The notes under the pieces are model-generated. The model searched no databases, had not been told where the DNA came from, and saw nothing but the letters and a program-made list of their open reading frames with translations. Positions 6,266 through 62,117 of a stretch of 64,000 bases of DNA are shown here, piece by piece; positions within the stretch are counted from its first letter, which is position 1; every line of letters starts with the position of its first letter. Location: positions 769,319 to 833,318 of the forward strand of contig CAZVTT010000001.1 in the NCBI GenBank assembly GCA_964629685.1. The letters are read 5' to 3'. The position numbers and the translations under genes were made by a program. This stretch comes from an uncultured Gammaproteobacteria bacterium. GTDB taxonomy: Bacteria; Patescibacteriota; Microgenomatia; UBA10105; UBA927.

Positions 6266-6268
6266 ACC

Positions 6269-11961: not shown

Positions 11962-12024
11962 GTGGTATAAATTTGGATTTTGCTTCCGTGTGCGTATAGC
12001 CGTATTATAACAGAGGTGTTACAC

Positions 12025-13554: not shown

Positions 13555-13575
13555 GTTTAGTACAATATAACTGCT

Positions 13576-18102: not shown

Positions 18103-18107
18103 CCCTT

Positions 18108-45403: not shown

Positions 45404-45734
45404 GTATTTACCAAATATGCAGATAAATTGGATCGGGGATTTGCCCAAAATACTGGTGTACGTAGTTTTAGTTTTCTGCGTAGTGATGGTAAAACAATTG
45501 CCGTACTTCAACGTGTATTTACCACTATCTTATTGTCTGATTCTTTTATGGGTAGCCGGTATTTGGATGTTTAGACCAAAACAATGGGTAACGCTGACCA
45601 TAAGCTTGTTATTCTTTATTGTAGGCGCTGTAGTACATGTTACCGGTGATACCTCCGTAGCGGGTGAGTTTGTAACGGCTGGCTATTATATTTGCTTTAT
45701 CCTATTTTTCCGGAATTTGCGGGTTACGTTATGA
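45396..45734 (+). CDS. Small (112 aa) 3-4 TM membrane protein, function unknown (GtrA-like flippase candidate)
   Basis: Almost entirely hydrophobic. Translationally coupled at both ends (8-nt and ATGA overlaps) between two giant membrane proteins. Confidence 0.35.
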   Translation: MNKYLPNMQINWIGDLPKILVYVVLVFCVVMVKQLPYFNVYLPLSYCLILLWVAGIWMFRPKQWVTLTISLLFFIVGAVVHVTGDTSVAGEFVTAGYYICFILFFRNLRVTL

Positions 45735-49003: not shown

Positions 49004-49989
49004 ATATACTGGTAACTGGCGGGGCTGGGTATATCGGTTCTATTACAAACAGGGTACTTACTGATGCCGGTCATAAAACCATCGTTTTTGACAATTTGTC
49101 TTCCGGTTATGCGGAAACCGTTCCGGCGAATCTAATAGTGGGAGATCTCCGGAACAAGCAGGATATACATAAAGTATTCTCGGATAATCATATAGACATT
49201 GTCGTACACTTTGCCGCTAAGGCGTTGGCGGGGGAGTCGATGAAGAATCCGTATGAATATTACGAAAATAACGTTCTGGGAGGATTAAATTTAGTCGAAG
49301 TCATGCGGGAGCATAATTGTAAGCAGATAATTTTTTCATCAACCTGTGCAGTATACGGATACCCGGATACTCTTCCGGTAACGGAAGAAGAGAAAATTAA
49401 TCCGGAAAGTGTTTACGGTTCATCCAAGCGGATGTTTGAAGAAGTGCTGGAGTGGTATGAAACGGTATACGGAATCAGACATGTAATTCTCCGGTATTTT
49501 AATGCCGCAGGGGCAGCTCTGGATGGTTCGTTAGGCGAACGTCACGTACCCGAAACGCACATTATTCCGATTGCTTTAGATGTAGCTTCAGGAAAAAAAC
49601 CGGCATTTTCCGTGTTCGGAAACGATTACGATACCGCGGACGGAACTTGTGTGCGGGACTATATTCACGTATTGGATTTGGCAATCGCCCATAAACAGGC
49701 TGCCGAGTATTTGGATAATAAAGAACACGGATCCGTGGTAGTGAACTTAGGTGCCGGTAAAGGATATAGTAATCTTGAAATATTGGACACAATTGAGCAG
49801 GTTACAGGCAAAAAAGTGAATAGAAAAATTGAACCGAGGCGCCCTGGTGATCCCGCATGTATATATGCTCGCACGGATAAAGCTAAAAGAGTATTGGGGT
49901 GGACACCTCAGTATTCAGATATAAAGACTATTATCGAATCCGCCTGGAAGTGGCACATTACTTTAGAGCAAGCCGGACCAACCGTTTAA
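49000..49989 (+). CDS. galE: UDP-glucose 4-epimerase
   Basis: MNILVTGGAGYIGS...FDNLSSG, YGSSKRMFE (YxxxK), RYFNAAGA and the overall 330-aa length make a classic GalE. The track ORF begins at 48985; ATG 49000 is preferred. Confidence 0.8.
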   Translation: MNILVTGGAGYIGSITNRVLTDAGHKTIVFDNLSSGYAETVPANLIVGDLRNKQDIHKVFSDNHIDIVVHFAAKALAGESMKNPYEYYENNVLGGLNLVEVMREHNCKQIIFSSTCAVYGYPDTLPVTEEEKINPESVYGSSKRMFEEVLEWYETVYGIRHVILRYFNAAGAALDGSLGERHVPETHIIPIALDVASGKKPAFSVFGNDYDTADGTCVRDYIHVLDLAIAHKQAAEYLDNKEHGSVVVNLGAGKGYSNLEILDTIEQVTGKKVNRKIEPRRPGDPACIYARTDKAKRVLGWTPQYSDIKTIIESAWKWHITLEQAGPTV

Positions 49990-51192
49990 CTTCATTTTTG
50001 TCAGAGTTTTCGAATATACACGATTCCACGTCGTATTTTTGGCGAAGAGGAAGGCTGATTTTTTCATACGATTATAAAGCCTGGGATGAGCACATAACTG
50101 CAGTATTCCGTCAGCAAAAGCTTCAGCGGTATCCTTTCGGATAATGCCGGCGTTTTTACTTACAAGTTCTTTACCCAAAGGTGGTACATCGGTAGTTATT
50201 ACGGGCAGGCCGCAACCGAGATAAAGTCTGATTTTTGAAGCATCTGCGTATCTCCGTAATGTTCCAGGAACATCCCTGTATGGAGCCAATCCTATCATGA
50301 AGTGTTTAATTTCTTCTGCTAACTTTGTCGTATCGGTGTATAGGCCGTGGAATAGTACATGACGTTGAACATTAAGTCTCCTGGCGTATCGCTGTAGCTC
50401 CTGCTCTCTTTTCCTTGGGCCGCCATAGAAATGGAGTTTAACATTCGGATATCTTTTCTTAACATACTGTAGAGCATGAATAGCAAGCTCAGGGCCGTTT
50501 TCATATCCAAGAGATCCGGCAAAAACCAACGTCAGCGGTTTAATATTCTTTGCGGATATAAAATGGATTTGCGAAGGAAATAGTCCGTTATGGACTACGA
50601 TTACCGGTTTGCAGCGTTCTCGGGAGAGACCAGCGGCTATTCTCGCCGGTAGCATTGCCGGCGAAAGGTCCCAAATGAAATCAGCGTGATAGCAGCAGAA
50701 TCTATCCAGGTATGTGTACACTCCATTCATAAAAACATTGTCATACCGTTTTGGAGAATAGTCTGATACGTAATAGACTACGGTTTCTATGATTCCAAAG
50801 TATTTCAGAATAATTCCGGCGAGGGTATATACACATTCCAGTCCTATAAATAATTCATATTTTTTCCGGGAACGCATCACATATTCAAATACCGAAAAGA
50901 AATCCCGAAATTTAAATATTGGTTGCGTCTGTGTGACACTATTATTTTTTGATTGTAACCATAGCTGTAACACCCGGCTTACGATAGAGGTCTGACGGCG
51001 TGTCCGTTGTACACCGGAGTATCTGTCAAAATATGTGAGGACTGTACTGCTTCCCGGATGCGTTCCGTCTAGTAAATCAATCTGGGAAGCCCGCTGACCA
51101 AAGAATGATATAAGCGGTTCTATCATTCCGTTAAGCGGAGTACGTTCACCGTTCTGCCAAAATGAGAATGTTGCAATAAGTACTCTTTTCAT
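49963..51192 (-). CDS. Glycosyltransferase family 4-like; paralog of 31474-32637
   Basis: C-terminal LYLGCGLPVITTDVPPLGKEL and shared internal motifs (see 31474). Confidence 0.65.
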   Translation of the reverse strand: MKRVLIATFSFWQNGERTPLNGMIEPLISFFGQRASQIDLLDGTHPGSSTVLTYFDRYSGVQRTRRQTSIVSRVLQLWLQSKNNSVTQTQPIFKFRDFFSVFEYVMRSRKKYELFIGLECVYTLAGIILKYFGIIETVVYYVSDYSPKRYDNVFMNGVYTYLDRFCCYHADFIWDLSPAMLPARIAAGLSRERCKPVIVVHNGLFPSQIHFISAKNIKPLTLVFAGSLGYENGPELAIHALQYVKKRYPNVKLHFYGGPRKREQELQRYARRLNVQRHVLFHGLYTDTTKLAEEIKHFMIGLAPYRDVPGTLRRYADASKIRLYLGCGLPVITTDVPPLGKELVSKNAGIIRKDTAEAFADGILQLCAHPRLYNRMKKSAFLFAKNTTWNRVYSKTLTKMKLNGWSGLL

Positions 51193-51221: not shown

Positions 51222-52358
51222 TTATCTGGGTTTGCTTCTGCTTATTTTTGTGGTGTTAAAAAAGGATTCGATTTTATCTGCTACCTGTTGCTGCTCTGAC
51301 TGGGTAATATGCGGGAAAAAGGGTAATGATACTATTTGTTTGGCCGCTTTTTCGGAAACAGGTAAGTCACCCCGTCTATATCCTAATTCCCTGTATGCCG
51401 GTTGAAGATGTATCGGCAGAGGATAATGAACAGCTGTATGTATACCTTGTGTCTCAAGATATGCTTGCAAAGCGTCACGTCTTGGTGTCTGTATTACATA
51501 TAAATAGTAAACGTGTTCCGCATCCGGGTGTGTGGCCGGAAGCGTAATGGGAAAGTGCCTCATGTTTTTGTTATACCATTCCGCCTTTGTTTTCCGTAGC
51601 GTATTCCACGCAGCCAGTTTTCTAAGTTTTACGGACAATATCGTTGCCTGCAGTGCATCAAGTCGGCTGTTGTATCCTTTTACGGGATGTTGATACCAAC
51701 CGGCTCTCCCCACGTTTCTCAGTATCGTAATTTGTTTAGCCAGATTTGCCTGCTTAACCGTTATTGCCCCGCCATCTCCGTACGCGCCCAGGTTTTTAGT
51801 CGGATAAAATGAATATACTACAGCGTCTGCGTAGTGCATGAGTGGTTTACCTCTAAATGTTGCTCCGTGAGATTGGCAGGCGTCCAATACAATTTTAAGT
51901 TTGTATCGTTTAGCCAGAGCAGCTATTTTATCAAGTTGTGGCGGTTGCCCATATAAACATACCGGGAGTATCGCCCGGGTTTTTTTGTTTATTTTCGCCT
52001 CAATAAGATCCTGATTCATATTCAGCGTATCCGGGTGTACATCAACAAAAACGGGAGTTGCTCCGGCATAACTAATCCCCAAGGCCGTTGCAATGAATGA
52101 ATGAGAGACGGTAATTACTTCATCTCCTGGACCGATACCAAGCGCTTTTAGTGCCATCAATAAGCCATCAGTTCCGTTGGCTATGCCAATTGCGTGAGAA
52201 CTGTGCGTTGCCTGTGCAAACTGTTTTTCAAATAGTTCAACCTGGGAACCGAGAATATAGCTTCCTTTACGCATGAGCGTAAGTACGTTCTTTTCTATCT
52301 CATTCTGCAGTTCAGCATGCTGCCTGGCAAGATCGACAAACGGTACATTTCGTTTCAT
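51222..52358 (-). CDS. DegT/DnrJ/EryC1/StrS-family PLP-dependent sugar aminotransferase (WbpE/ArnB/PglE-like)
   Basis: VPFVDLARQHAELQNEIEKNV...GSYILGSQVELFEKQFA...AIGIANGTDGLLMALKALGIGPGDEVITVSHSFIAT. Confidence 0.85.
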   Translation of the reverse strand: MKRNVPFVDLARQHAELQNEIEKNVLTLMRKGSYILGSQVELFEKQFAQATHSSHAIGIANGTDGLLMALKALGIGPGDEVITVSHSFIATALGISYAGATPVFVDVHPDTLNMNQDLIEAKINKKTRAILPVCLYGQPPQLDKIAALAKRYKLKIVLDACQSHGATFRGKPLMHYADAVVYSFYPTKNLGAYGDGGAITVKQANLAKQITILRNVGRAGWYQHPVKGYNSRLDALQATILSVKLRKLAAWNTLRKTKAEWYNKNMRHFPITLPATHPDAEHVYYLYVIQTPRRDALQAYLETQGIHTAVHYPLPIHLQPAYRELGYRRGDLPVSEKAAKQIVSLPFFPHITQSEQQQVADKIESFFNTTKISRSKPR

Positions 52359-52810
52359 AATATTTTTGCCGGATTTCCTGCAACGGTAGTGTTCGGCGCA
52401 ACATCCGAGACTACCACGCTACCAGCTCCTACCGTGGCATTTTCACCTATCGTTAGGCCGCACATAATGGTTGCGTTGGCTCCGATGGCCGCACCTTTTT
52501 TTACGGTGGTTTTTTCTACCGTCCAGTTGCTTTTCTGTTTAAGTTCTCCGTTATCCGTGGTAGCTCTGGGATTTCGGTCATTAATAAAACAGACATGTGG
52601 TCCGATAAAAACGTTATCCTCGATAGTGACACCTTCCGGTATAAATGCGAAGGCCTGAATTTTAACGTTATTTCCTATTTTCACATCCGGTTTAATTTCA
52701 ACAAAACTTCCTATCCGGCAATTGGAGCCGATAGTGCATCCATAAATATTTACCTGTTCCGGATGAAAAATAACCGTATCTTTCCCGATAATGGTATGCG
52801 GTCCTATCAT
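52355..52810 (-). CDS. Hexapeptide-repeat sugar N-acetyltransferase (WbpD/PglD-like short LbH)
   Basis: 151 aa that is almost entirely hexapeptide repeats (IGSNCRIGSFVEIKPDVKIGNNVKIQAFAFIPEGVTIEDNVFIGPHV...). ATGA overlap with the aminotransferase. Confidence 0.7.
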   Translation of the reverse strand: MIGPHTIIGKDTVIFHPEQVNIYGCTIGSNCRIGSFVEIKPDVKIGNNVKIQAFAFIPEGVTIEDNVFIGPHVCFINDRNPRATTDNGELKQKSNWTVEKTTVKKGAAIGANATIMCGLTIGENATVGAGSVVVSDVAPNTTVAGNPAKIL

Positions 52811-52811
52811 T

Positions 52812-53822
52812 TTATTTAATGGAAATAAATTTCCCGTTACGTTTTAATGATTTTTCGGCTGCATCAAGTATCTCAATCACCCGTAATCCGGCATGACCGT
52901 CGGATCTGGGTTTGCGCTTCTTCCGGATAGAATCAACAAAATGTTTGCTCATGAAGTGCAGCGCTTCTATATCATCTAGCCTTGGAGAATACATATCTCC
53001 CACTCGATACTGAAACCGGCTGATGTTAATATCCTGCGCATTTTGTTCAAATGTAATGGCGCGGTCATACACTTTTATTTTTTCTATCGGTTCCATATCA
53101 TTGTACACTATCATTTTTTTCAAACCGGAAATCAAGGTCATCCGCAGCTTTACCGGTGCTAACCAATTTACGTGTATATGACTAATAAGATTATCGTCAA
53201 ACTTAACAGTGACATAAACGATATTTTCCAGGCCTTTTTTGATATGGGAGGAACCGACGGCAGATACGGCTATCGGTTTTTTGCCGATTATATAGTCCAT
53301 GATCGAAATGTCATGCGTTGCCAGATCCCACAACACGTTGGTCCGTTGCTGAAATAGTCCAAGATTTACACGGACAGAATCAAAATAACATAATTTTCCG
53401 AGTGTGTTTTTATCTACTATTTGTTTAATTTTTTGGACAGCAGCGGAGTATACAAACGTGTGATCAACCATCAGGGTAACATGGTTTTTTTCCGCCAAAT
53501 GTACCAATGATTTGGCTTCCTTAAGGGATGCCGCCATTGGTTTTTCCAGGAGGACATGTTTTCCCGCTTGAATTGCTTTTTTTCCGATCGGGAAATGCGT
53601 ATGCACTGGGGTTGCGATAACTACGGCCTGAATTTGTTTGTTTTTGATAATACTGTCGATTGACGTTACGGTCTCTATGGTGGGAAATGCATCTTTAACT
53701 GTTTTTAGTTTCTTTGCATCAATATCACAGACATGACTCACCAGCACACCGGGAAGTGAATAAAAATTTCTTACGAGGTTAGGCCCCCAATAACCACATC
53801 CTATGACGGCAATTTGTAACAT
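52812..53822 (-). CDS. Gfo/Idh/MocA-family NAD(P)-dependent oxidoreductase (WbpB-like nucleotide-sugar dehydrogenase)
   Basis: MLQIAVIGCGYWGPNLVRNF forms the N-terminal Rossmann domain. EKPMAASLKEAKSLV is the typical EKP motif. Confidence 0.8.
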   Translation of the reverse strand: MLQIAVIGCGYWGPNLVRNFYSLPGVLVSHVCDIDAKKLKTVKDAFPTIETVTSIDSIIKNKQIQAVVIATPVHTHFPIGKKAIQAGKHVLLEKPMAASLKEAKSLVHLAEKNHVTLMVDHTFVYSAAVQKIKQIVDKNTLGKLCYFDSVRVNLGLFQQRTNVLWDLATHDISIMDYIIGKKPIAVSAVGSSHIKKGLENIVYVTVKFDDNLISHIHVNWLAPVKLRMTLISGLKKMIVYNDMEPIEKIKVYDRAITFEQNAQDINISRFQYRVGDMYSPRLDDIEALHFMSKHFVDSIRKKRKPRSDGHAGLRVIEILDAAEKSLKRNGKFISIK

Positions 53823-53896: not shown

Positions 53897-53923
53897 TTGA
53901 CGGTTGGGTACATTTCGTATATA
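53897..53923 (+). promoter_or_regulatory. Putative sigma70-like promoter (TTGACG-N15-TATATA) for the plus-strand block that starts with the GT2 at 53949
   Basis: TTGACG at 53897-53902 and TATATA at 53918-53923. The spacing is short. Confidence 0.2.
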
Positions 53924-53948
53924 CCTCGTCTATTGGTCAAAAAGCAAT

Positions 53949-54623
53949 ATGGAATTATCAGTAATCTTCCCTGTTCATAATGAAGCCGGTACAATTGAAA
54001 AAACAATAAGTAGGGCCGTAACCGTACTCAAGGAAGCAGGAATTTCCTGTGACATCATTTGTGTAGAAAACGGTTCGACGGATACGTCTGCACAAGTGTT
54101 GCAACAGATAGTGCGAAAATACCGAAATGTCCGTATGATCACTTCGGCAAAAGGGTGGGGGAATGCAGTAAAGCGGGGACTTTCGGAGGCAAAAGGAAAA
54201 TATTTATGTTACATGGTTTCGGATTATCAGGTAGATCCCCAACACATCGTTACGGTTTATAGGGAACTGATGAAAAATCCGGGTACACTTGTTAAAGTAA
54301 CCCGGATTACGCGTGAGAATAGACAGCGTCTGATTAATTCGCGGACATACAACATCTTCGCAAAATTATTATTCGGATTTTCTACAATAGATATAAACGC
54401 AACGCCAAAAGTGTTTGATCGTAAGCTCATTTCCGGATATACCTTTATATCCCCCAACATCGCATTCGATTTGGAGTTACTGAAGAAAGTTACCCACGAC
54501 GGTGTTAATGTTATAGATATACCAGTAAAAAGTCTGCGTCGGGATGCCGGGACATCTACTACAAATTGGAAATCAGTTTTGGAAATGGTGCGCTATATGC
54601 TTAGATTTCGAATATCGGTCTGA
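53949..54623 (+). CDS. Glycosyltransferase family 2 (Dpm1/GtrB-like polyprenyl-phosphate sugar synthase candidate)
   Basis: MELSVIFPVHNEAGTIEKTI...ICVENGSTDTS...YMVSDYQVDP. The track ORF uses TTG at 53904; ATG 53949 is preferred. Confidence 0.7.
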   Translation: MELSVIFPVHNEAGTIEKTISRAVTVLKEAGISCDIICVENGSTDTSAQVLQQIVRKYRNVRMITSAKGWGNAVKRGLSEAKGKYLCYMVSDYQVDPQHIVTVYRELMKNPGTLVKVTRITRENRQRLINSRTYNIFAKLLFGFSTIDINATPKVFDRKLISGYTFISPNIAFDLELLKKVTHDGVNVIDIPVKSLRRDAGTSTTNWKSVLEMVRYMLRFRISV

Positions 54624-54671
54624 AAGTGCGACTTGCTATTCTCCTGAAGATGATTTTATAATTCCCGTTAT

Positions 54672-55610
54672 ATGTCAAAATCAACATCACCGTCCAAGTT
54701 TCAACTGATCATGATATCCGCTATGTATGAAAATGGTGGAAACACCATTCATCGCCATCTTGATGGTCATCCTCAACTTTTTGCGTATCCTTTTGAATCT
54801 CAACCGGGAACATTCATGGTTGCGGATTGGATGACAAGTATGTTTCCGCAAAAATACCGCTGGCCTGAATTTGGTTTGGAAGGAAACGTAGAACGCGATT
54901 ACGAAGCGATTATTGATGAAGAATTTAAAGTACGGGTAAATACTCCGCACGTTTCCAAATTTCGGGATCTATCAGACATGGGGTGTACCAATAAAGACCG
55001 CAAGGATCTTTTTATAAAATTTATGAAAAACAAGCCGCGTACCCGCGGTAACTTAATGGAAGCGTTTTACCGATCAACTTTTGACGCGTGGACCACGTAT
55101 AACCGAACGGGAAAAGAAGTAGCGTATGTCGGATACAGTCCAATTATCGGTGTCGATACGGATAAAATAGTAGCGGATTATCCCAACGCGATTGTCTTAC
55201 ACATAGTCAGAAATCCGTATGCAGCATTTGCGGAAACGAAACGTCGTCCAGTTCCGTATGGTTTGGAGAAATATATCCGGATATGGAACTATATGCAGTT
55301 AACCGCCTTAAATTTTGCAAATGTATATCCGAAGAATTTGGTAATGGTTCGTTATGAAGATATGGTGGAAAATAAAGAAAAATTCTTCAAAGATTTGAGC
55401 AAAAAATTGGGCATCTCCTATAGTGATACCATGTTATACCCGTCCTGGAATGGGAGGAGATTAGATCACCAGTATCCGTGGGGTACCATAGAAATTCCGA
55501 CCAAAGAAGCGAATAAAGAAACGACGTACGAATTAACTAAGGATGAATTTTCCAGGGTAAAAGCACTGACAATGGTGCTCAATAAAGTCCTGGGATATGA
55601 TCATCTTTAA
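54672..55610 (+). CDS. Sulfotransferase-family protein (Sulfotransfer_3-like) with a degenerate 5'-PSB motif
   Basis: ISAMYENGGNTIHRHLDGHPQL sits where the PKSGTT-type P-loop lies. LHIVRNPYAAFAE is 3'-PB-like. VRYEDMVENKEKFFKDLSKKLGI matches the sulfotransferase C-terminal motif rYEDLvxxPexxlxxlxxfLG. Confidence 0.45.
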   Translation: MSKSTSPSKFQLIMISAMYENGGNTIHRHLDGHPQLFAYPFESQPGTFMVADWMTSMFPQKYRWPEFGLEGNVERDYEAIIDEEFKVRVNTPHVSKFRDLSDMGCTNKDRKDLFIKFMKNKPRTRGNLMEAFYRSTFDAWTTYNRTGKEVAYVGYSPIIGVDTDKIVADYPNAIVLHIVRNPYAAFAETKRRPVPYGLEKYIRIWNYMQLTALNFANVYPKNLVMVRYEDMVENKEKFFKDLSKKLGISYSDTMLYPSWNGRRLDHQYPWGTIEIPTKEANKETTYELTKDEFSRVKALTMVLNKVLGYDHL

Positions 55611-56709
55611 ACACAATCAACTTCCGGACGAGCGTGTGATTCACGCATATGATGGTGTGCGTAAGTCAATCTTTCTGACGAAAGCAGATTATGCTATTGA
55701 ACGCGATTCTCCGAAGTTCCCCGACATCAGCAAGCAGTTGGAACAAATTCTGATTAAATATACTGGTGCAAATGTACACGTAACCTCTGTAACCGTAGAG
55801 CCTCTGGGTACGTTTCATACGATTTATCGAGTTACTACACCGAATGAACGCTACGTCGTAAAGCTCAATGCGTTTCCCGATCAGTACCGGGAGCTGTCTT
55901 TCTTGTTGGAACATTGGGTAAATATTCAGTTGGAGCAAGCAGGAATAGTATATTGTCCTACCATTGCAACAGATGTTTCCAGATCGTTTATTAATACGGA
56001 TATTCTCGTTCAGCGTCTGATTCCGGGAGATACATTGTATAGTCTTGCGGCCGGAAAAGAATTACCACCGATCCTGTTGGCTGATGTCGGGTCACATATC
56101 GCCAAGGTACACAGGTTAAAATGTAAAGGCTTCGGTCAAATTTCTTTGCAGAGCCTTCTTGCAGAAGGTGTTGCACGGGGTCAGATGAATTCCTGGTTTG
56201 AGTACTTAGATACACGGTTTAGTGATCATATACAATTCTGTATTCATCAACAGATATTGAATGCAGATAGTTTATCAATCCTGCAATCTCTCAGCCAAAC
56301 CGTAAAACGGAAAATATCCGTCAGGCAAGGGTGTTTACTTCACGGAGATGTTGCAAACCACAATATTATTGCGGATGGTAATCATGTTTCGGCGGTTTTG
56401 GATTGGGAAGATGCAGTTATTGGCGATAGTCTATACGATGTCGCATACTGGGGAACTGCTTCGTTCGGTCACGATGGCTGGATTAAAGAATTCCACACTG
56501 GATACAATGCAATTACTCCCTTTTCAGCAACGGATAATCTGGCGTATTGGTTTTATTTTTTTCGGATATCACTCGCCAAAGCCGTCATCAGACATAAAGA
56601 ACAAAAAGATAGATCACTAACAATTGCCAGGTTAAAGCATAGTCTTTCCGTTCTCGATGGACTTCTTTATAATAGCCGAGTATTATCAGCATGTCTGAGT
56701 ACCGTATGA
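55597..56709 (+). CDS. APH/choline-kinase-family small-molecule kinase (phosphotransferase enzyme family)
   Basis: HGDVANHNIIADGNHVSAVLDWEDAVIGDSLYDVA contains Brenner's motif HGDxxxxN plus the DWE motif. An N-terminal nucleotide-binding lobe is present. Confidence 0.7.
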   Translation: MIIFKHNQLPDERVIHAYDGVRKSIFLTKADYAIERDSPKFPDISKQLEQILIKYTGANVHVTSVTVEPLGTFHTIYRVTTPNERYVVKLNAFPDQYRELSFLLEHWVNIQLEQAGIVYCPTIATDVSRSFINTDILVQRLIPGDTLYSLAAGKELPPILLADVGSHIAKVHRLKCKGFGQISLQSLLAEGVARGQMNSWFEYLDTRFSDHIQFCIHQQILNADSLSILQSLSQTVKRKISVRQGCLLHGDVANHNIIADGNHVSAVLDWEDAVIGDSLYDVAYWGTASFGHDGWIKEFHTGYNAITPFSATDNLAYWFYFFRISLAKAVIRHKEQKDRSLTIARLKHSLSVLDGLLYNSRVLSACLSTV

Positions 56710-57677
56710 AACATAAAACTATTCTGATTACCGGTGGGTTGGGATTTATCGGAACTAACGTTATCCGTAGACTGCTTGCTAATACTCCCGATGATATCCT
56801 GATTTTTGATAAAATTACCTATGCCGGACGTGTTGATAATCTTCCTCAAGATAAAAAAACCCGGTCCAGAATACATTTCTATAAAGGGGATATAACCAAA
56901 AAAAGAAGTGTGTTTGCTGCCGTAAAGGAAGCGGATATCGTTGTTCATTTGGCCGCTGATACGCATACGTTCAGATCCTTAACGTATGCAGTCCCCACGG
57001 TTCTTACGAACGTATTGGGAACCGCGTTGTTACTCGAAGCGTCCAGAAAACATCCGGTGGAACGATTTATTCAAATATCCAGTTCCGAAGTATACGGTAA
57101 CTCTCTTCCTGATGTAGAGATGGATGAAAATCATCCGCTTAACCCGGTAAGTCCGTATGCCGCATCTAAGCTGGCAGCCGACCGACTGGCATATTCATTT
57201 TATCAGTCGCAGGGTGTGCCGACTACGGTATTACGTTTTTTTAATGCGTACGGTCCGTATCAGTTCCCGGAAAAAATGGTTCCGTTATTTATTACCCGTT
57301 TATTAAAAAAGCAACCGATTTCCCTAAATCACGGAGGTCGTCAGGTAAGGGACTGGGTTTTTGTGGAAGATCATGCAAAAGCCATTGAAACAATTATTAC
57401 GTCTCCTGCAGATTTAGTTGTAGGTGAAGTTTTTAACATAGGTACCGGTACTGCCACATCCATTCGCGAAGTTGCAGAATTAATTTGCCGTCAGTTAAAC
57501 TTAGGCAATGAATATATACGGATTGCCGAATCATCAAAAGTGGAAACAATGGGCAACGTGGGAATTTCGCGTAAGGTAAAACAGAAACTGGGTTGGGGTC
57601 CGCAAACGTCCCTTACGGAAGGGTTAAACCGAACTATTGATTGGTATAAAGAAAATCAGTCTTGGTGGGACAGGTAG
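56706..57677 (+). CDS. NDP-hexose 4,6-dehydratase (RmlB-like SDR)
   Basis: ATG 56706 overlaps the upstream TGA. ILITGGLGFIGTNVIRRLL; IFDKITYAGRVDNL is the RmlB-type DKLTYAGN motif; YAASKLAADRLA is YxxxK. Confidence 0.7.
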   Translation: MKHKTILITGGLGFIGTNVIRRLLANTPDDILIFDKITYAGRVDNLPQDKKTRSRIHFYKGDITKKRSVFAAVKEADIVVHLAADTHTFRSLTYAVPTVLTNVLGTALLLEASRKHPVERFIQISSSEVYGNSLPDVEMDENHPLNPVSPYAASKLAADRLAYSFYQSQGVPTTVLRFFNAYGPYQFPEKMVPLFITRLLKKQPISLNHGGRQVRDWVFVEDHAKAIETIITSPADLVVGEVFNIGTGTATSIREVAELICRQLNLGNEYIRIAESSKVETMGNVGISRKVKQKLGWGPQTSLTEGLNRTIDWYKENQSWWDR

Positions 57678-57678
57678 T

Positions 57679-58608
57679 ATGAGTCGTAAGCGTGTCGTGA
57701 TTACCGGTGGAGCTGGTTTTGTAGGTGCAAACCTTGCACGGAAGCTTCTGAAGAAATACGATGTTCATCTTATTACCCGCGAAAAAAGTAACTTGTGGCG
57801 ACTTACGGATATTTTAAACAATGTTACCATCCATCCCATCGGACTACATAATATTGACGCATTAGAACAGTTTTTTTTACGGATAAAGCCGGAGTATATT
57901 CTGCATACTGCTACATATGGCGCATATCCGTCGCAACAGAATACGGATGAATTATTTGAAGTAAATATTAAAGGAGTGTTAAACCTACTCACCGCATTGT
58001 CCGATATATCCTATTCCCGGTGTATTATTTTCGGTAGTTCATCCGAATACGGTAAGAAAGAAAAGCCGATGCGTGAAACGGATATTCTTGATCCTAATAA
58101 TATGTACGCCGTAACAAAAGCAACACAAACGCATCTGGCCCGGTACTATGCGCAGGTACATCAAAAGCCCATTACTATATTCAGATTATTTAATGTGTAT
58201 GGACCATACGAAGAAAAGGGGAGGTTAGTACGGAATGTCATAGAAGCGTCCCTAACCGGGGACACAGTCGCGCTAGCGACAGGAAAAGAGGCGCGTGATT
58301 TTATTTATGTTGACGATATTGCTAATGCTTGTGAAATGGCATTTACCTCTACACTATCTCCCGGGGAAATATTTAATATCGGTACGGGAGTACAAACGTC
58401 TATATATCAATTGGCAAAATTGGTGGTTAAATTGACCAGGAGTAAAAGCGTTATTGAACGGGGAGTATATCCGGGCAGACCGTGGGATTCATTTCATTGG
58501 AAAGCAGTTACAAAGAAAACGGATACTATCTTGCATTGGCAGAGTTCTACTGCTCTTGCAGCCGGCTTAACAAAAACTATTACCTGGTATAAAAAAAATC
58601 ATGAATAA
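57679..58608 (+). CDS. NAD-dependent epimerase/dehydratase or reductase (SDR)
   Basis: MSRKRVVITGGAGFVGANLARKLL; YAVTKATQTHLARYY (YxxxK). The track ORF begins at 57637; ATG 57679 is preferred because it directly follows the upstream stop. Confidence 0.7.
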   Translation: MSRKRVVITGGAGFVGANLARKLLKKYDVHLITREKSNLWRLTDILNNVTIHPIGLHNIDALEQFFLRIKPEYILHTATYGAYPSQQNTDELFEVNIKGVLNLLTALSDISYSRCIIFGSSSEYGKKEKPMRETDILDPNNMYAVTKATQTHLARYYAQVHQKPITIFRLFNVYGPYEEKGRLVRNVIEASLTGDTVALATGKEARDFIYVDDIANACEMAFTSTLSPGEIFNIGTGVQTSIYQLAKLVVKLTRSKSVIERGVYPGRPWDSFHWKAVTKKTDTILHWQSSTALAAGLTKTITWYKKNHE

Positions 58609-59428
58609 ACTCACTAAAACCGAACGGAATAAACTTCAGGAAGCATCATATTCAGTAAAAGAAGGAATTTTAGATATTTCATATCGTGCCAAAACCGGTC
58701 ATATAGGATCTGCTCTTTCTATAGCTGACTTGGTTGCTGTACTTTATGAGTCGTCGTTGCATATATCTCGCGCAATACTGAATTCTAATAAACGGGATAG
58801 ATTTATTTTAAGTAAAGGTCATGCAGCCGCAGCACTTTATGCTGCACTCTATTACAAGAAAATATTATCCAAAAAGGAATTCATGTCTTTCGGACATGAG
58901 GAGGGTGGTCTATGTGAGCATCCGGAAATTCATGATTCCGGCGTGGAGATGTCGGCCGGTTCGTTAGGACATGGCCTGAGTTTTGCCACGGGAATTGCTC
59001 TGGGGATGAAACGGCAGCGGATAAAGAATACTGTGTATGTATTAATTAGTGACGGCGAATGTGGAGAAGGTTCTATCTGGGAGGCAGCGCAACTTGCAGC
59101 AACGTTAAAACTGGATAATTTAGTCGTAATAGTGGATTTTAATAATTGGCAATGTTTCGGCCGTTCTACGGAAATATTGGCTCTCGAGCCGTTTCAACAG
59201 AAATGGGAAGCTTTCGGTTTTGCCGCCAGAACGATAAATGGACACGATATTGACGAAATAGTCGGCGCGTATAGATCAGTTCCATTCCGGAAAAACAAAC
59301 CGAGCGTTGTGATTGCCAAAACTATAATTGGTAAGGGAATAAGTTTATTTGAGGATCAGATAAGTGCGCACTACAAAGTGTTTACCGAAGAAGAGTATAT
59401 GCAGGCAAAACTGGAGATACAATTATGA
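58601..59428 (+). CDS. Transketolase, N-terminal (ThDP/PP-binding) subunit of a split transketolase
   Basis: KTGHIGSALSIADLVAVLY...ILSKGHAAAALYAALY and GSLGHGLSFATGIALG...LISDGECGEGSIWEA carry the ThDP-binding GDG-type motif. Confidence 0.85.
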   Translation: MNKLTKTERNKLQEASYSVKEGILDISYRAKTGHIGSALSIADLVAVLYESSLHISRAILNSNKRDRFILSKGHAAAALYAALYYKKILSKKEFMSFGHEEGGLCEHPEIHDSGVEMSAGSLGHGLSFATGIALGMKRQRIKNTVYVLISDGECGEGSIWEAAQLAATLKLDNLVVIVDFNNWQCFGRSTEILALEPFQQKWEAFGFAARTINGHDIDEIVGAYRSVPFRKNKPSVVIAKTIIGKGISLFEDQISAHYKVFTEEEYMQAKLEIQL

Positions 59429-60345
59429 GAAGTGCATTTATAAGAGGTCTTCTGGAAGCGGCAAAAACGGACAAATCAATATTCTTGTTAACTGGAGATT
59501 TAGGGTACAGATTTCTTGAACCATTCAGGGACGCGTACCCTGACCGTTTTCTAAACGTCGGCGTGGCTGAAGCAAACTTAGTAACGGCGGCTGCCGGTCT
59601 GGCTACTGCCGGATATACTCCGGTAATATATTCTATCGCCACCTTTATGACTATGCGGCCTTATGAACAAATACGTGATGATATCGTGTTACAACATTTA
59701 AACGTTAAGCTGGTCGGTATCGGGGGAGGTTTGGCATACGCCATGGCAGGTCCAACACACCATTCTCTGGAAGATATTTCCCTGATGAGAACACTTGCGT
59801 CGATGGCCATTATTGTTCCTACTGAACCCACTGAGGCGTATAAAGCCACAAAAGAGATGGTGTTGCAAAAGGGTCCGGTGTATCTCAGATTGGAAAGAAA
59901 TCCGGAGCAGGTCGTTACTGCAACTTCACGGTTTACTCTCGGTAAAGCGAACCAAATTAACAGCGGTAAGTCCGTATGTCTTATGTTTACCGGTACTAAA
60001 CGGTTACTGTCTGAACGTATCGCCGCTATTTTATATGAAAAAAAGGGAATAGAACCGACAATAGTCGCGTTCCCTACAGTCCGACCGCTTGATAAAAAAC
60101 TGGTACTCGGGATGGCGAAATCTCATCAACTGCTGGTTACGATTGAAGAACATCTCCCGTCGGGTGGGTTTGGTTCTGAAGTTCTGGAAACTATTTCGGA
60201 TTCGATACCTCCCGGAAAATTACGGGTTATCCGTATGGGTATTCCAGGTCATTCTCATCGGTCGGCTGGGTACCATACGTTATGTTCTCAGGCAGGATTT
60301 ACGCCTGAAGCTATTGCTAAACGGATCTGTTTATACCTCCCGTAG
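59425..60345 (+). CDS. Transketolase, C-terminal (Pyr and C-terminal domain) subunit of a split transketolase
   Basis: FLLTGDLGYRF...FLNVGVAEANLVTAAAGLATAGYTPVIYSIATFMTMRPYEQIR; ATGA overlap with the N-terminal subunit gene. Confidence 0.85.
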   Translation: MRSAFIRGLLEAAKTDKSIFLLTGDLGYRFLEPFRDAYPDRFLNVGVAEANLVTAAAGLATAGYTPVIYSIATFMTMRPYEQIRDDIVLQHLNVKLVGIGGGLAYAMAGPTHHSLEDISLMRTLASMAIIVPTEPTEAYKATKEMVLQKGPVYLRLERNPEQVVTATSRFTLGKANQINSGKSVCLMFTGTKRLLSERIAAILYEKKGIEPTIVAFPTVRPLDKKLVLGMAKSHQLLVTIEEHLPSGGFGSEVLETISDSIPPGKLRVIRMGIPGHSHRSAGYHTLCSQAGFTPEAIAKRICLYLP

Positions 60346-60417
60346 TAGTCAGTTTTTCGCTTTGGGTTCTCACAGAGCATTTTCTGCGGTAGAATGTCAC
60401 TAGTCCCACGCGTATAT

Positions 60418-60978
60418 ATGAAAATTGCCATAGATATTAGTCAGGTCTGTTATGAAGGTACAGGAGTTGCTCGGTATATATCGCAATTGGTACCGGCTTT
60501 ACTGCATGTACACTCTGCTCATACATTCGTGCTTTTTGGCTCATCGTTTCGGCAACGTGAGCGCCTTAAGCGTTTTGTAGAACCATTGTGTGCAGATAAT
60601 CCCCGCGTCAGTTCGGTAATATTGCCTTTCCCACCGGCATTCTGGGACGTTTTATGGAATAGATTGCATCTGGTTCCGATTGAGTGGATTATAGGGAACA
60701 TAGATGTATTTTGGAGTAGTGACTGGACGCAGCCTCCGGTTTCAACCGCGGTTGCGGTAACGACTATTCATGATATTTCCATACTCCGGAATCCCGAAAC
60801 GTTCTCGGAGCACATCAGAGAAGTACATACCCGTAAATTAGCAAGGTCTGTGGCAAAATGTAAGGCTTTTTTTTGTGACTCGGAGGCGACGAAAAAAGAC
60901 GTACATCAGACTCTCCGTATACCACTTGAACAGTTATATGTGATATACCCAGGATTGCACCAGGGGGCAAACCTATGA
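60418..60978 (+). CDS. GT4 N-terminal-domain-only protein (truncated paralog; possible pseudogene or split GT-B half)
   Basis: MKIAIDISQVCYEGTGVARYISQL... aligns with the N-termini of 22155 and 60975 but stops after ...YVIYPGLHQGANL, the domain boundary. No C-terminal EGFGLP domain. The stop overlaps the next ATG. Confidence 0.5.
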   Translation: MKIAIDISQVCYEGTGVARYISQLVPALLHVHSAHTFVLFGSSFRQRERLKRFVEPLCADNPRVSSVILPFPPAFWDVLWNRLHLVPIEWIIGNIDVFWSSDWTQPPVSTAVAVTTIHDISILRNPETFSEHIREVHTRKLARSVAKCKAFFCDSEATKKDVHQTLRIPLEQLYVIYPGLHQGANL

Positions 60979-62117
60979 TATTGGCAATCGACGGATATGA
61001 AGCAAATAGTGGTCATAGGGTAGGCGTCGGTGAATACGCCTATCAATTGCTATGTCAGATGCATAGTCTTATCGGGCAAATGCCACCGGGTAAAAGACAT
61101 ACCGTCCGGGTGTACTTACCTCAAAAACCCAGATCGGATATGCCTAAGAAAACCGGTTGGTGGCAATACCGTGTGAGAAAACCTGGTCGGTTATGGACGC
61201 TTTTTGCATTGCCGATCTCATTATGGCTTGATCATCCCAGAGCCGATGTGATTTTTTCGCCTACACACTACGTACCCAGATTCACCGCTATCCCCCGGGC
61301 AATGGCGATTATGGATTTGTCGTATTTGGAATACCCATCACTCTTCAGGGCCAAAGACTTACATAAATTAGTTCATTGGACTGCCTATTCAGTAAAAAAT
61401 GCGAAAAAGATTTTTACCATTAGCGAGTTTAGTAAGAATGCTATAATGAAGACGTACGGGCTATCAGGACGGGAAGTTATAGTAACATATCCCGGGTTAA
61501 TTATGACGAAAAAGAATAAAAAAGCTGATACCGGAGTTGAACTGCAGCAGAAATATAACTTAGGTTCACGATATATTCTTTCCGTTGGGACGCTCCAGCC
61601 CAGGAAGAATTATGTCCGACTCATTGAAGCATTTTCGTTGTTACAACAGAAATCAGATACTGCAGATTTGCAATTGGTAATTGCAGGGAAGAAGGGTTGG
61701 TTGTTTGAAGAAATTCTCGCTGCTCCCCGGAAATACGGTGTAGAATCAAAAGTTATTTTTTTGGATTATGTCCCTGATAAAGATTTGCCCTCATTGTATG
61801 AACATGCTATCTGTTTCGCGTTACCGAGTCTGTATGAAGGGTTCGGATTACCGGTTCTCGAAGCTATGGCTAACGGGTGCCAAGTGGTCGTAAGTAATGT
61901 ATCCAGCCTTCCGGAAATCGCAGGAGATGCAGGCATTTACTGTGAGCCTGAGGATGTCGCGAGTATCACTACAGGATTAAGCAAGGCGGTAAAAGACTTC
62001 GGTTCGGCGAAAGCAAAGGAGCGAATTAGTTGGGGAAAAGATAGGGTAAAATTATTTAATTGGAATGATGCTGCGGAGAAAACACTCGCAGTGCTCGAAC
62101 AAATAGTAAAAAAGTAA
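60975..62117 (+). CDS. Glycosyltransferase family 4 (full length)
   Basis: N-domain MILAIDGYEANSGHRVGVGEYAYQLL...VTYPGL. C-domain YILSVGTLQPRKNY...EGFGLPVLEAMANGCQVVVSNVSSLPEIAG. Confidence 0.75.
   Translation: MILAIDGYEANSGHRVGVGEYAYQLLCQMHSLIGQMPPGKRHTVRVYLPQKPRSDMPKKTGWWQYRVRKPGRLWTLFALPISLWLDHPRADVIFSPTHYVPRFTAIPRAMAIMDLSYLEYPSLFRAKDLHKLVHWTAYSVKNAKKIFTISEFSKNAIMKTYGLSGREVIVTYPGLIMTKKNKKADTGVELQQKYNLGSRYILSVGTLQPRKNYVRLIEAFSLLQQKSDTADLQLVIAGKKGWLFEEILAAPRKYGVESKVIFLDYVPDKDLPSLYEHAICFALPSLYEGFGLPVLEAMANGCQVVVSNVSSLPEIAGDAGIYCEPEDVASITTGLSKAVKDFGSAKAKERISWGKDRVKLFNWNDAAEKTLAVLEQIVKK

Follow-up and report, generated by a model that had tools for sequence, protein, structure and literature searches.

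A published account (PMC10951654) gives the 5′-PSB and 3′-PB motifs as common to all sulfotransferases and R78, E99, and K158 as the catalytic residues of TPST2. Described proteins that have the alpha/beta fold of STL, the sulfotransferase-fold protein analyzed here, include TPST1/2 and the 'activating' sulfotransferase domains of CurM and OLS. They are of the PF13469 type and depend on PAPS, and the similarity to STL is detectable by sequence in the C-terminal half. The proteins closest to STL that have a canonical loop (ISQIQRSGGT…RNPxSWYAS), which are known as sequences only, score 102–127 bits against the STL family profile. Unlike STL, these canonical-loop relatives keep the Arg of the 5′-PSB and the Ser of the 3′-PB, so they look like real PAPS enzymes. 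They are often fused to TPR repeats or the NBD of an ABC transporter, which suggests action on polymers.

The gene downstream of STL encodes KIN, a kinase of the same APH/protein-kinase-like fold as APH(4)-Ia and fructosamine-3-kinase, which are small-molecule hydroxyl kinases. Phosphorylation of the FN3K type creates a leaving group. A described pathway to an unusual sugar is that of CDP-yersiniose, in which RfbF/DdhA and DdhB are followed by the ThDP-dependent YerE and the reductase YerF.

Fold, conservation, and altered phosphate-binding motifs of STL

STL (312 residues, forward strand, positions 54672–55610) and KIN (370 residues, forward strand, 55597–56709) are encoded in the 64 kb window, which is the whole stretch of DNA that was analyzed, and both reading frames are present exactly as given in the preliminary description. 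A promoter-like TTGCTA-18-TATAAT element (54633–54662, forward strand) ends 9 nt before the STL start codon. It is the best match (10/12) in the 10 kb scanned, and it is weak evidence of a promoter, the total number of matches not being above that in shuffled controls.

In the Pfam HMM search, STL matches PF13469 (Sulfotransfer_3) with 47.2 bits (cutoff 27, E = 4e-12) in a partial alignment that covers only residues 127–252 and profile positions 80–216; PF00685 gave no match. Of the two sulfotransferase families named in the preliminary description, the first is thus confirmed and the second is not. The RYEDMV…LSKKLGI segment, put forward there as a C-terminal sulfotransferase motif, is inside the aligned block. 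The AF2 model of STL has a pLDDT of 91.8, and its top Foldseek matches are TPST1/2, OLS-ST, and CurM-ST (E about 1e-8, TM about 0.55). A profile search of the PDB with STL retrieved OLS-ST at 3e-6 and CurM-ST at 2e-5, whereas a profile of residues 1–150 alone returned only noise from the PDB sequences and no solved sulfotransferase. STL thus models as a TPST/CurM-type sulfotransferase fold. A viral fold search identified generic viral sulfotransferases only, with at most 15% identity, and protein searches of plasmid and phage collections gave 0 matches.

The HMM matches and motifs of STL and KIN are far above chance. A search of one database gave 3385 homologs of STL at E ≤ 1e-3 and 50–95% identity, and a second database contained 3544 cluster representatives. 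Their phyletic range includes CPR, Dependentiae, and Micrarchaeota, and public annotation calls them 'sulfotransferase' or 'hypothetical'. Of the STL positions, 63 are kept in at least 96% of 81 orthologous sequences (more than 12 phyla), including A17-T25, E42-S43-Q44, R180-N181-P182, and T189. The invariant basic residues are R28, K86, K96, R110, R125, and R192.

The 5′-PSB position of STL is occupied by the YENGGNT loop (codons 19–25, 54726–54746, forward strand), one of the loops of the acidic-loop clade to which STL belongs. In the model, the loop sits in a strand-loop-helix after beta1 (strand 12–17, helix 23–30). As the preliminary description had noted, the basic residue of the 5′-PSB is missing, since the loop does not contain any Lys or Arg. 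The sequence YENGGNT is identical in 81/81 orthologs from more than 12 phyla and therefore does not represent decay. This invariance, the conserved positions, and the retained Glu column described below make the earlier terms 'degenerate' and 'non-catalytic' unlikely to apply to STL. Glu20 aligns without gaps with the 5′-PSB Arg of the canonical-loop relatives, in which the loop, LDGHP motif, Glu42 column, and RNP motif are spaced as in STL. The register of the P-loop differs by one residue between alignments to TPST and to OLS-ST, and was settled only through the canonical-loop relatives.

The 3′-PB segment of STL is RNPYAAFAET (codons 180–189, 55209–55238, forward strand), as indicated by alignments to OLS, CurM, and the canonical-loop relatives. 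The 3′-PB-like VRNPYAAFAE proposed earlier does align with VRHPYAVIES of the OLS and CurM sulfotransferases and keeps Arg180, but it has Glu188 in place of the Ser at +8, a position that is Asp or Glu in all orthologs. The neighboring Thr189 is invariant.

The two changes were compared in a gap-free alignment of 39 sequences, comprising 38 cluster representatives and STL of the window. The pairs of residues at the 5′-PSB and 3′-PB positions are Arg and Ser in 10 sequences, Asp and Asp in 15, Glu and Asp in 12, Glu and Glu in 1, and Glu and Ser in 1. Summed up, 10 sequences have Arg with Ser, 28 have two acids, 1 has Glu with Ser, and 0 have Arg with an acid. The 3′-PB Ser is therefore lost together with the 5′-PSB change in 28 of the 29 acidic-loop sequences. 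In the same alignment of acidic-loop and canonical-loop sequences, the column of R180 contains Arg in 39/39.

Glu42 (in PFESQ, 54795–54797, forward strand) is the candidate general base of STL, and its column contains Glu in 38/39 acidic- and canonical-loop relatives. The alignment of OLS-ST with STL near Glu42 reaches only as far as the PP residues, and the Glu42 column is presumably one residue off register from the Glu that we take to follow PP in OLS-ST. TPST, CurM, and OLS share with STL the LDxHP helix after the P-loop, the Arg of the 3′-PB, and, putatively, a Glu at the general-base position. They differ from it in that STL has Glu20 in place of the 5′-PSB Arg/Lys, Glu/Asp188 in place of the 3′-PB Ser, and a family-specific C-terminal SWNG…PWGT. 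STL also belongs to a sugar-pathway context, in contrast to the PKS or protein substrates of the known enzymes. The exchange of Arg/Lys for an acid at the 5′-PSB and of Ser for an acid at the 3′-PB argues against PAPS, and therefore against sulfation by STL. The paired replacement of both PAPS-holding residues by carboxylates points to a probable cofactor switch away from PAPS.

The partner kinase and its replacement by DUF4915

KIN matches PF01636 (APH) with 76.1 bits (cutoff 23.2) and PF03881 (Fructosamin_kin) with 33.4 bits (cutoff 22.4); PF01633 (choline kinase) did not match it at E ≤ 1. The APH fold proposed in the preliminary description is therefore upheld, whereas the LicA or choline-kinase type is not. 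The best NCBIfam match of KIN is APH(4)-Ia with 32.9 bits against a cutoff of 725, and the other NCBIfam resistance APH and Mph models score below this, which speaks against the resistance clade that had been considered as an alternative placement. The nearest solved structure is that of hygromycin-B 4-O-kinase (40 bits). The catalytic loop H249-G-D251…N256 and the metal-binding D269-W-E-D272 (56341–56412, forward strand), recognized earlier as HGDxxxxN and DWE motifs, are invariant in 38/38 orthologs. The basic residue of beta3 at position 89 is Lys in 6 orthologs and Arg in 32 (K89 in the window). These features show KIN to be, to judge from its sequence, a catalytically intact small-molecule kinase.

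The ATG of KIN at 55597 precedes the TAA stop codon of STL at 55608–55610, and KIN is predicted to be translationally coupled to STL via this 14-nt overlap. The STL-KIN junction measures −28 to +10 nt in 31/38 orthologous loci, which bears out the functional coupling of the two genes proposed earlier. The adjacency is kept in CPR, Planctomycetota, Gammaproteobacteria, Dependentiae, Armatimonadota, and Micrarchaeota.

The kinase is not the general partner of STL, because a DUF4915 beta-propeller replaces it in about half of the lineages. Among 50 loci with at least 5 kb of flanking sequence on each side of STL, 26 contain the kinase, 24 contain DUF4915, and 0 contain both. The gene immediately after STL is the kinase in 25/50 loci, and DUF4915 immediately precedes STL in 21/50; in the remaining 4/50, the kinase or DUF4915 is located elsewhere in the locus. 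The STL tree splits according to the partner type. No STL residue separates the two types at a threshold of at least 85%, and three residues do so weakly. A sister clade contains in-frame fusions of an STL-like protein with DUF4915 (P0348, P0360, and P0374), which adjoin a split transketolase.

The number of DUF4915/TIGR03032 homologs found was 2965. It was considered whether DUF4915 is a propeller like that of arylsulfate sulfotransferase, but its fold matches were generic YWTD/NHL propellers, with 0 ASST among them. Further candidate fusions, in which DUF4915 or SDR appeared joined to the YENGGNT family (P0267, P0278, P0288, P0321, P0329, P0333, P0334, P0379, P0390, and P0394), were set aside, since most of them look like assembly or gene-calling artefacts, being frameshifted and high in GC, while for P0288 the gene call is partial. 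The analysis relied only on the three clean in-frame fusions of the sister clade.

The sugar cassette around STL

The window represents a glycan island in which many independent genes are densely packed. Upstream of STL is a small GT2 of the polyprenyl-phosphate sugar synthase type (53904–54623, forward strand, 239 residues, or 224 from an alternative start at 53949; PF00535, 74.5 bits). It has sub-threshold matches to the ArnC, PpgS, and AglJ models, and its ortholog in locus L004 is PgfS/ArnC-like. KIN is followed on the forward strand by SDR1 (56691–57677, 328 residues), which resembles RmlB-like NDP-hexose 4,6-dehydratases but misses the TIGR01181 cutoff of 365 with 294.6 bits, and which has orthologs with 54–56% identity in loci L012–L014. 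SDR2 (57637–58608, forward strand, 323 residues, alternative start 57679; PF01370, 169 bits) is an extended SDR epimerase/reductase and a core member of the cassette. The N-terminal (58601–59428; PF00456, 141 bits; NF004559, 239 bits, sub-cutoff) and C-terminal (59425–60345; PF02779 and PF02780) subunits of a split transketolase-like ThDP enzyme come next on the same strand. The closest solved structure to the C-terminal subunit is the split transketolase 6yaj (149 bits), followed by DXS. The NCBIfam scores of the two subunits are 239 and 168 bits against a cutoff of 488, with DXS scoring nearly equally for the C-terminal subunit.

Across the 50 well-flanked loci, an SDR is present in 47, the transketolase in 42, and a GT2 homolog in 36. 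In the window and in locus L090, GT-C genes (such as PMT_2, YfhO, and PTPS_related) border the cassette, and ordinary class I methyltransferases are present in some STL loci. No tRNA genes or Rfam families were found in the window. In some phyla, the cassette also contains a glucose-1-phosphate cytidylyltransferase and a CDP-glucose-dehydratase-like SDR, and the NTP-transferases of the cassette score above the curated cutoff for G1P cytidylyltransferases (332 and 343 bits against 300). The carrier genes vary: Planctomycete-type loci are of the CDP type, and the window has the RmlB-like SDR and no nucleotidyltransferase. The carrier thus seems to be lineage-dependent, yet the sequence of STL is near-identical everywhere, which speaks against a reading of the nucleotide by STL. 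It was also considered whether KIN is an anomeric kinase that feeds the cytidylyltransferase; this was rejected, since the transferase belongs to the G1P-cytidylyltransferase equivalog and half of the kinase-type loci lack it.

The preliminary description had suggested that STL and the kinase provide anionic decoration of the glycan. Rather than the decoration of a finished glycan, the SDRs, the split transketolase, the ArnC/GtrB-like GT2, and the occasional CDP-glucose synthase suggest that a precursor is modified, either a nucleotide sugar or a polyprenyl-phosphate sugar. Literature searches on the cassette, on DUF4915/TIGR03032, on CDP-glucose with transketolase, and on sulfotransferase-like nucleotide-sugar enzymes returned nothing relevant. 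An Actinoplanes EPS paper reports both a split transketolase and sulfotransferases, but in separate clusters.

Proposed function and known systems

The explanation that we prefer, and hold with about as much confidence as doubt, is that STL may be an active, repurposed, cofactor-switched enzyme of the sulfotransferase fold, which functions in a pathway from nucleotide sugar to polyprenyl-phosphate sugar and is not a glycan sulfotransferase. Of the three options in the preliminary description, a repurposed fold fits best, while a non-catalytic protein is unlikely and sulfation is argued against. Two side-chain changes and the gene context suggest that the former PAPS pocket could now hold a different nucleotide ligand, whose ribose hydroxyls would be free and whose 5′ group would be cationic or bridged by a metal; the most economical candidate would be an NDP-sugar with Mg2+. 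STL would then perform Glu42-assisted chemistry on a sugar hydroxyl rather than PAPS-dependent sulfation. As the gene context shows, STL is a fixed step of the conserved cassette of SDRs, pathway-specific split ThDP transketolase-like enzyme, and small GT2. The cassette may make an unusual sugar from an NDP-hexose, perhaps one with a C2 branch or an extended chain, which would be attached to polyprenyl phosphate and then transferred to the envelope. With low confidence, KIN most likely phosphorylates the same sugar intermediate, either to provide the substrate of STL or to use up the STL product, for instance by turning a hydroxyl into a leaving group, and the six-bladed DUF4915 beta-propeller presumably fills the role of the kinase in about half of the lineages.

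A broader proposal, which we make more tentatively, is that the acidic-loop clade (YENGGNT, WNDSGGG, and related) could be a new enzyme class in which PAPS has given way to another nucleotide ligand, for instance an NDP-sugar with a bound metal or an adenosyl cofactor that is cationic. As parts of the same joint claim, it would operate in an undescribed multi-phylum envelope-sugar pathway with the split ThDP transketolase-like enzyme and the APH-fold kinase or DUF4915, in hosts that include CPR bacteria, DPANN archaea, Planctomycetota, and Melainabacteria, and its product would possibly be a C2-branched or chain-extended sugar made via polyprenyl phosphate.

It is unlikely that STL is still a genuine sulfotransferase, as in the main reading of the preliminary description. 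In the manner of a 'with-no-lysine' kinase, STL would bind PAPS or APS with a positive charge from a different invariant Arg/Lys or from a divalent cation coordinated by Glu20. It would yield a sulfated glycan or sugar precursor, and the kinase would place a phosphate elsewhere. The fold and the above-cutoff Pfam match agree with this, and so do the retained Glu column, Arg180, and the invariant Thr189, which could still hold a 3′-phosphate. The many invariant basic residues could substitute for the missing 5′-PSB charge, the change of the 3′-PB Ser to Asp would suit APS with its free 3′-OH, and the cation-bound TPST2 structure 9wwe is among the fold matches. However, STL has an invariant carboxylate where all characterized sulfotransferases carry the Lys/Arg that contacts the phosphosulfate, and this change is coupled to the loss of the 3′-PB Ser. 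Genes for PAPS synthesis (sat/cysDN and cysC) are absent from the 64 kb window, which covers part of a contig of roughly 0.95 Mb, and from the annotated homologous STL loci. CPR and DPANN genomes have been reported to contain almost no sulfur-cycle genes (PMC12153355), and the presence of STL in CPR, Dependentiae, and Micrarchaeota, groups reported to be nearly without sulfur-metabolism genes, lends weak support to the argument against a supply of PAPS. The extreme conservation also suits a nucleotide-sugar enzyme better than a sulfotransferase that decorates polymers.

That STL is a pseudoenzyme, which binds a ligand or serves as a scaffold to present the sugar to the kinase or DUF4915, is improbable. 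The canonical catalytic Arg/Lys is lost, STL always adjoins and often overlaps one of the two partners, and the sister clade contains in-frame fusions to DUF4915, but the putative general-base Glu and a dense set of invariant aromatic and polar residues persist in more than 12 phyla. STL has essentially no partner-specific residues despite the two unrelated partner folds, which is a poor fit with a dedicated interface, and it is more conserved than the kinase, with a mean pairwise identity of 58% against 32% in the same genomes. Quite improbable is a switch of the pocket to SAM or another cationic adenosyl cofactor, proposed by analogy, with transfer of a methyl or other group to a sugar hydroxyl; the sulfonium or amino group would then be paired with the loop Glu/Asp, and the ribose diol with Asp/Glu188. 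Class I methyltransferases have an acid with a Gly-rich loop and an acidic ribose-binding motif. The loops D-S-G-G-G, E-S-G-G-G, and E-N-G-G-N likewise have an acid followed by a glycine-rich stretch, the second acid is located where the ribose 3′ substituent lies, and the candidate general base is kept, as expected for an O-nucleophile acceptor. Nevertheless, this motif analogy has no known precedent of SAM use in the sulfotransferase fold and leaves the kinase or propeller partner unexplained, and ordinary class I methyltransferases are already present in some loci. The possibility that STL and KIN are unrelated neighbors, with KIN acting, for instance, on an antibiotic or a choline/ethanolamine precursor, could draw on the many independent genes of the glycan island and on the aminoglycoside kinase as the nearest solved relative of KIN. 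It is highly improbable and effectively refuted by the conserved synteny, with adjacency in six groups from CPR to Micrarchaeota and tight junctions in 31/38 loci; moreover, the STL tree tracks the partner type, and no resistance-APH or choline-kinase model scores KIN above its cutoff.

The 'sulfotransferase' label feeds predictions of sulfated glycans in uncultured lineages, and the correlated carboxylate replacement suggests that this label is wrong for thousands of sequences. If the preferred explanation of a repurposed enzyme is true, STL represents a clear natural cofactor switch inside the sulfotransferase fold. The cassette is one of few envelope-sugar modules common to CPR, DPANN, Dependentiae, and free-living phyla. 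Its product, once known, would give a role to DUF4915/TIGR03032 and to the 'orphan' split transketolases of polysaccharide loci.

Compared with known kinases, KIN has the fold, the HGDxxxxN motif, the DWE(D) metal site, and the beta3 Arg/Lys of APH(4)-Ia and fructosamine-3-kinase. However, its similarity to APH(4)-Ia amounts to 40 bits only, it scores far below every NCBIfam cutoff, and it is neither a resistance determinant nor a choline kinase. The cassette as a whole would match the logic of CDP-yersiniose synthesis, with an NDP-glucose synthase, a 4,6-dehydratase, a ThDP-dependent C2 addition to a keto-sugar, and an SDR reductase. Its ThDP enzyme is split and transketolase/DXS-like, in contrast to the acetolactate-synthase-like YerE, and the cassette does not include an E1/E3 deoxygenation system and has extra steps of STL and the kinase or DUF4915. 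The small ArnC/PgfS-similar GT2 followed by GT-C transferases resembles the Arn/GtrB/PgfS polyprenyl-phosphate sugar routes, whereas the upstream sugar-modifying enzymes are entirely different.

Sulfotransferase-like protein and its conserved loop

The window encodes a 312-aa sulfotransferase-like protein (STL; ORF A, positions 54672..55610, plus strand) followed by an APH-fold kinase of 370 aa (ORF B, 55597..56709, plus strand). The ATG of ORF B is positioned inside the final codons of ORF A, resulting in a 14-nt overlap. The preliminary description had recognized a sulfotransferase-like gene and an overlapping kinase gene, and this observation is correct, as the coordinates, overlap, matches to families PF13469 and PF01636, and model fold agree. 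The sulfotransferase assignment stands in Pfam, where ORF A reaches 47.2 bits against Sulfotransfer_3 (PF13469; gathering threshold 27). The alignment is limited to residues 127-252, corresponding to profile positions 80-216, and leaves unaligned the N-terminal part, where the 5'-phosphosulfate-binding (PSB) loop would be expected. No NCBIfam model matched ORF A. The AlphaFold2 model of ORF A, calculated from 27 homologs (pLDDT 91.8, pTM 0.90), has the fold of a sulfotransferase, and its closest structures are those of TPST1/2, the sulfotransferase domains of OLS and CurM, and mycobacterial Stf1/Stf9.

Public gene calls place the start of ORF A at 54672, resulting in 312 aa (locus L008, protein P0243), or at 54711, resulting in 299 aa (loci L006 and L007, protein P0244). 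The start at 54672 is the better one, because the longer form retains the first beta-strand and the near-invariant Phe10. The promoter-like sequence TTGCTA-18-TATAAT (54633-54662) is the best sigma-70-like match (10/12) in the 10 kb scanned and ends 9 nt before the STL ATG; the total of such matches over these 10 kb is not higher than in shuffled controls. If used, the promoter would imply a leaderless or nearly leaderless STL transcript.

Databases contain 3385 homologs of ORF A from many phyla, most of them 50-75% identical to it. The pattern SAMYENGGNT..R..D.HP....YP.ESQ.GT is invariant in 27 diverse homologs. Sixty-three positions are conserved to at least 96% among 81 orthologs from named genomes, including Y19-E20-N21-G22-G23-N24, E42-S43-Q44, R180-N181-P182, and T189, and position 188 is Asp or Glu in all 81. 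Judged from these alignments, the unusual YENGGNT loop is a fixed signature of the family. The mean pairwise identity in the same genomes is 58% for the STL versus 32% for the kinase. Such a constraint on the STL would be typical of enzymes of nucleotide-sugar pathways, unlike that expected for a decaying pseudo-enzyme or a polymer-specific decorating enzyme.

Paired substitution at the PAPS phosphate contacts

An exhaustive profile search reaching ever more distant relatives of the STL yielded 3544 cluster representatives. Their PSB loops form a series from ISQIQRSGGT, in distant homologs of the canonical type that keep the PSB Arg, through SAL[PH]ESGGG, SAWNDSGGG, and SAWHEQGGN to SAMYENGGNT of the ORF A family. 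The distance from the loop to the LDGHP motif is the same in all five types, and Glu20 therefore aligns with the PSB Arg without a gap. The 3'-phosphate-binding (3'-PB) motif is RNPxSW[YF]AS in the canonical-type relatives, whereas it is RNPYxAxA[DE]T in the ORF A family. The spacing of the Arg and the +8 Ser in the former is presumably that of EST and TPST2.

The residues at the two contacts were counted in 39 sequences, comprising 38 full-domain, non-artefactual representatives and the window protein. The combination (PSB, 3'-PB) is (R,S) in 10 sequences, (D,D) in 15, (E,D) in 12, and (E,E) and (E,S) in one each, and Arg is never combined with an acid. The Glu42 column contains Glu in 38 of the 39 sequences and the Arg180 column Arg in all of them. 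At the level of sequence, both PAPS phosphate contacts have been lost in a correlated manner, with the Glu42 and Arg180 columns kept. The presence of carboxylates at exactly the two positions whose side chains hold the 5' and 3' phosphates, together with the retention of a putative general-base position, looks like a change of ligand and not a loss of function.

A PSB Glu combined with a 3'-PB Ser was seen only in P0255 (EAGGN … RNPFSSYAS), which may represent an intermediate step in the evolution of the double substitution. Twelve representatives (P0263, P0267, P0292, P0329, P0333, P0334, P0342, P0347, P0355, P0379, P0390, and P0394) are frameshifted mosaics with out-of-frame stretches rich in Arg, Ala, and Pro. 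Such mosaics are common among high-GC members of the STL family in the public protein collection, where they mimic fusions with DUF4915 or short-chain dehydrogenases (SDRs) and raise cluster counts.

Alternating partners and the surrounding glycan genes

ORF B exceeds the Pfam thresholds for APH (PF01636, 76 bits) and Fructosamin_kin (PF03881, 33 bits). The choline-kinase-type label that it had been given has to be dropped, since the Pfam search returned no match to the choline-kinase family. No resistance family was matched either: ORF B is far under every NCBIfam cutoff (top model APH(4)-Ia, 33 versus 725 bits), and its nearest solved relative, hygromycin-B 4-O-kinase, reaches a mere 40 bits. 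The kinase catalytic residues H249, D251, N256, D269, D272, and the beta3 Lys/Arg are all present.

The proposed coupling of the STL and kinase is borne out by a junction and synteny kept across phyla, and the kinase is a real partner; the junction measures -28 to +10 nt in 31 of 38 loci. However, the partnership is confined to kinase-type loci, and DUF4915 takes the place of the kinase in others. Among 50 loci with at least 5 kb on both sides of the STL, the kinase is directly downstream in 25 and DUF4915/TIGR03032 directly upstream in 21, and none has both genes. In the other four, the relevant gene is elsewhere in the locus: DUF4915 in three and a kinase match in one. Pairing of the STL with a kinase or a DUF4915 propeller is obligatory. 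In a neighbour-joining tree of STL proteins, the DUF4915-partnered clade is separate from the kinase-partnered clades, with one exception, the kinase match of which is non-adjacent. No STL residue discriminates between the partners at the level of at least 85%, and positions 183, 204, and 303 alone track the partner, weakly. Therefore, the STL appears, from sequence comparison, to perform the same chemistry with either partner.

DUF4915 is likewise highly conserved (2965 homologs, 57-86% identity). Its model (pLDDT 81.7) is a six-bladed beta-propeller of the YWTD/NHL-like type with a helical segment at the N terminus, and it is not a kinase. The sister WNDSGGG clade contains clean in-frame STL-DUF4915 fusions (P0348, P0360, and P0374), one of which adjoins a split transketolase, and the association of the acidic-loop sulfotransferase fold, DUF4915, and transketolase is therefore old. 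In this clade, one ORF at L092:8001-9716 contains both an STL domain and DUF4915, and the adjacent split transketolase is transcribed divergently.

The genes recurring around STL homologs are one or more SDRs, a split transketolase (N- and C-terminal subunits), a small GT2, and often an NTP-transferase. This recurrence was seen in CPR bacteria (L001, L005), Planctomycetota (L002, L004), and the source population (L006-L008). Of the 50 flanked loci, 42 contain a transketolase, 47 an SDR, and 36 a homolog of the small GT2. The NTP-transferase, where present, is a glucose-1-phosphate cytidylyltransferase (332 and 343 bits; curated cutoff 300), and the SDR adjoining it resembles CDP-glucose 4,6-dehydratase. 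The window itself contains no nucleotidyltransferase, and the first SDR downstream of its kinase is RmlB-like; therefore, the nucleotide carrier may differ between lineages. Among solved structures, the nearest to the cassette transketolase is a split transketolase from Carboxydothermus (149 bits), followed by DXS. The GT2 resembles the polyprenyl-phosphate sugar synthases PgfS and ArnC, and in locus L090 GT-C transferases follow the cassette. Minimal kinase-type loci (L089:7726-12387, and L036 and L038 of Dependentiae) contain a cytidylyltransferase-like gene, SDR, STL, and kinase alone, with no transketolase within 10 kb. The STL-kinase pair can apparently work without a C2-adding step.

A scan of reference genomes identified 318 GTDB species with an STL relative. 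The best 80 loci all come from metagenome-assembled genomes of uncultured organisms, and span Patescibacteria, Planctomycetota, uncultured Gammaproteobacteria, Bacteroidota, Armatimonadota, Actinomycetota, Desulfomonilaceae, Melainabacteria, Dependentiae, Verrucomicrobiota, Acidobacteriota, Chloroflexota, and one Micrarchaeota archaeon. No STL copy was found in plasmid and phage collections.

The first third of the window is filled with GT-C transferases, including PMT_2 paralogs, PTPS_related (4625-6265), YfhO (7944-10313), and GT87 (13576-14847). They belong to a stretch (2944-21394) of nine or more ORFs, each about 520-790 aa long and most of them encoding GT-C-type membrane glycosyltransferases; this battery of polyprenyl-phosphate-sugar-using enzymes is unusually large for a genome whose contig is ~0.95 Mb. 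The glycan island of the window also encodes a B12-binding radical SAM enzyme (27285-28898, 537 aa), whose gene is surrounded by those of GT2, GT4, and methyltransferases; it may act as a C-methylase or modify sugars by another radical reaction. For four large ORFs of the glycan island (19763-21394, 543 aa; 32634-35378, 914 aa; 41894-45403, 1169 aa; 45692-47782, 696 aa), Pfam gave no match at E<=1e-5. The GFO/IDH/MocA oxidoreductase, hexapeptide acyltransferase, and DegT aminotransferase genes at 51222-53822 (minus strand), beside a GT4 (49963-51192), resemble the WbpB/WbpD/WbpE route to 2,3-diacetamido sugars and are transcribed divergently from the STL cassette. The ORF at 60394-60978 (194 aa) has only a GT4 N-terminal domain and runs into the start of a complete GT4 of 380 aa (60975-62117); it may be part of a split gene, a gene remnant, or an N-domain that stands alone.

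Candidate ligand and pathway

The STL could be a sulfotransferase-fold enzyme that no longer uses PAPS and has been repurposed for a nucleotide-sugar precursor pathway, a reading to which we give an even chance. It is unlikely that the STL is a true sulfotransferase in which the positive charge has been relocated or APS is used: several invariant Arg and Lys residues are present, and Arg180 and Thr189 are retained, but the 64-kb window contains no PAPS genes, and sulfur-cycle genes have been reported to be nearly absent from CPR and DPANN genomes (PMC12153355). A non-catalytic scaffold is improbable, given the conserved polar core and the absence of partner-specific residues. Binding of a SAM-type cofactor in the STL pocket, an attractive analogy and nothing more, is more improbable still. 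Chance adjacency of the STL and kinase genes is excluded by the synteny across phyla.

The sulfotransferase fold and both Pfam families are already known. As far as these tools can tell, the acidic-loop clade, the correlated double substitution, the alternating partners, and the cassette are undescribed; the literature search found no paper mentioning DUF4915/TIGR03032 or the cassette. There is a substantial chance, although somewhat below even, that the STL clade and its cassette represent an enzyme class and a sugar pathway that are both new.

As a repurposed enzyme, the STL would bind a nucleotide whose ribose hydroxyls are free and whose diol is paired with the acid at position 188, and the acid at position 20 would meet a metal-bridged or cationic 5' group. 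An NDP-sugar with Mg2+ is the simplest candidate ligand, because CDP-glucose enzymes are co-encoded. Glu42 might act on a sugar hydroxyl, and the kinase might phosphorylate the same intermediate, perhaps turning the hydroxyl into a leaving group. Fructosamine-3-kinase-type enzymes activate a hydroxyl as a leaving group by phosphorylation. The DUF4915 propeller may accomplish an equivalent step independently of ATP. The transketolase-like enzyme and the second SDR downstream of the kinase would then add and reduce a two-carbon unit, and the GT2 would load the product onto polyprenyl phosphate for the GT-C enzymes. For the kinase and transketolase, the specific roles suggested here are doubtful at best. 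The putative transketolase and SDR steps would be analogous in logic to the two-carbon addition and reduction by YerE/YerF in CDP-yersiniose synthesis.
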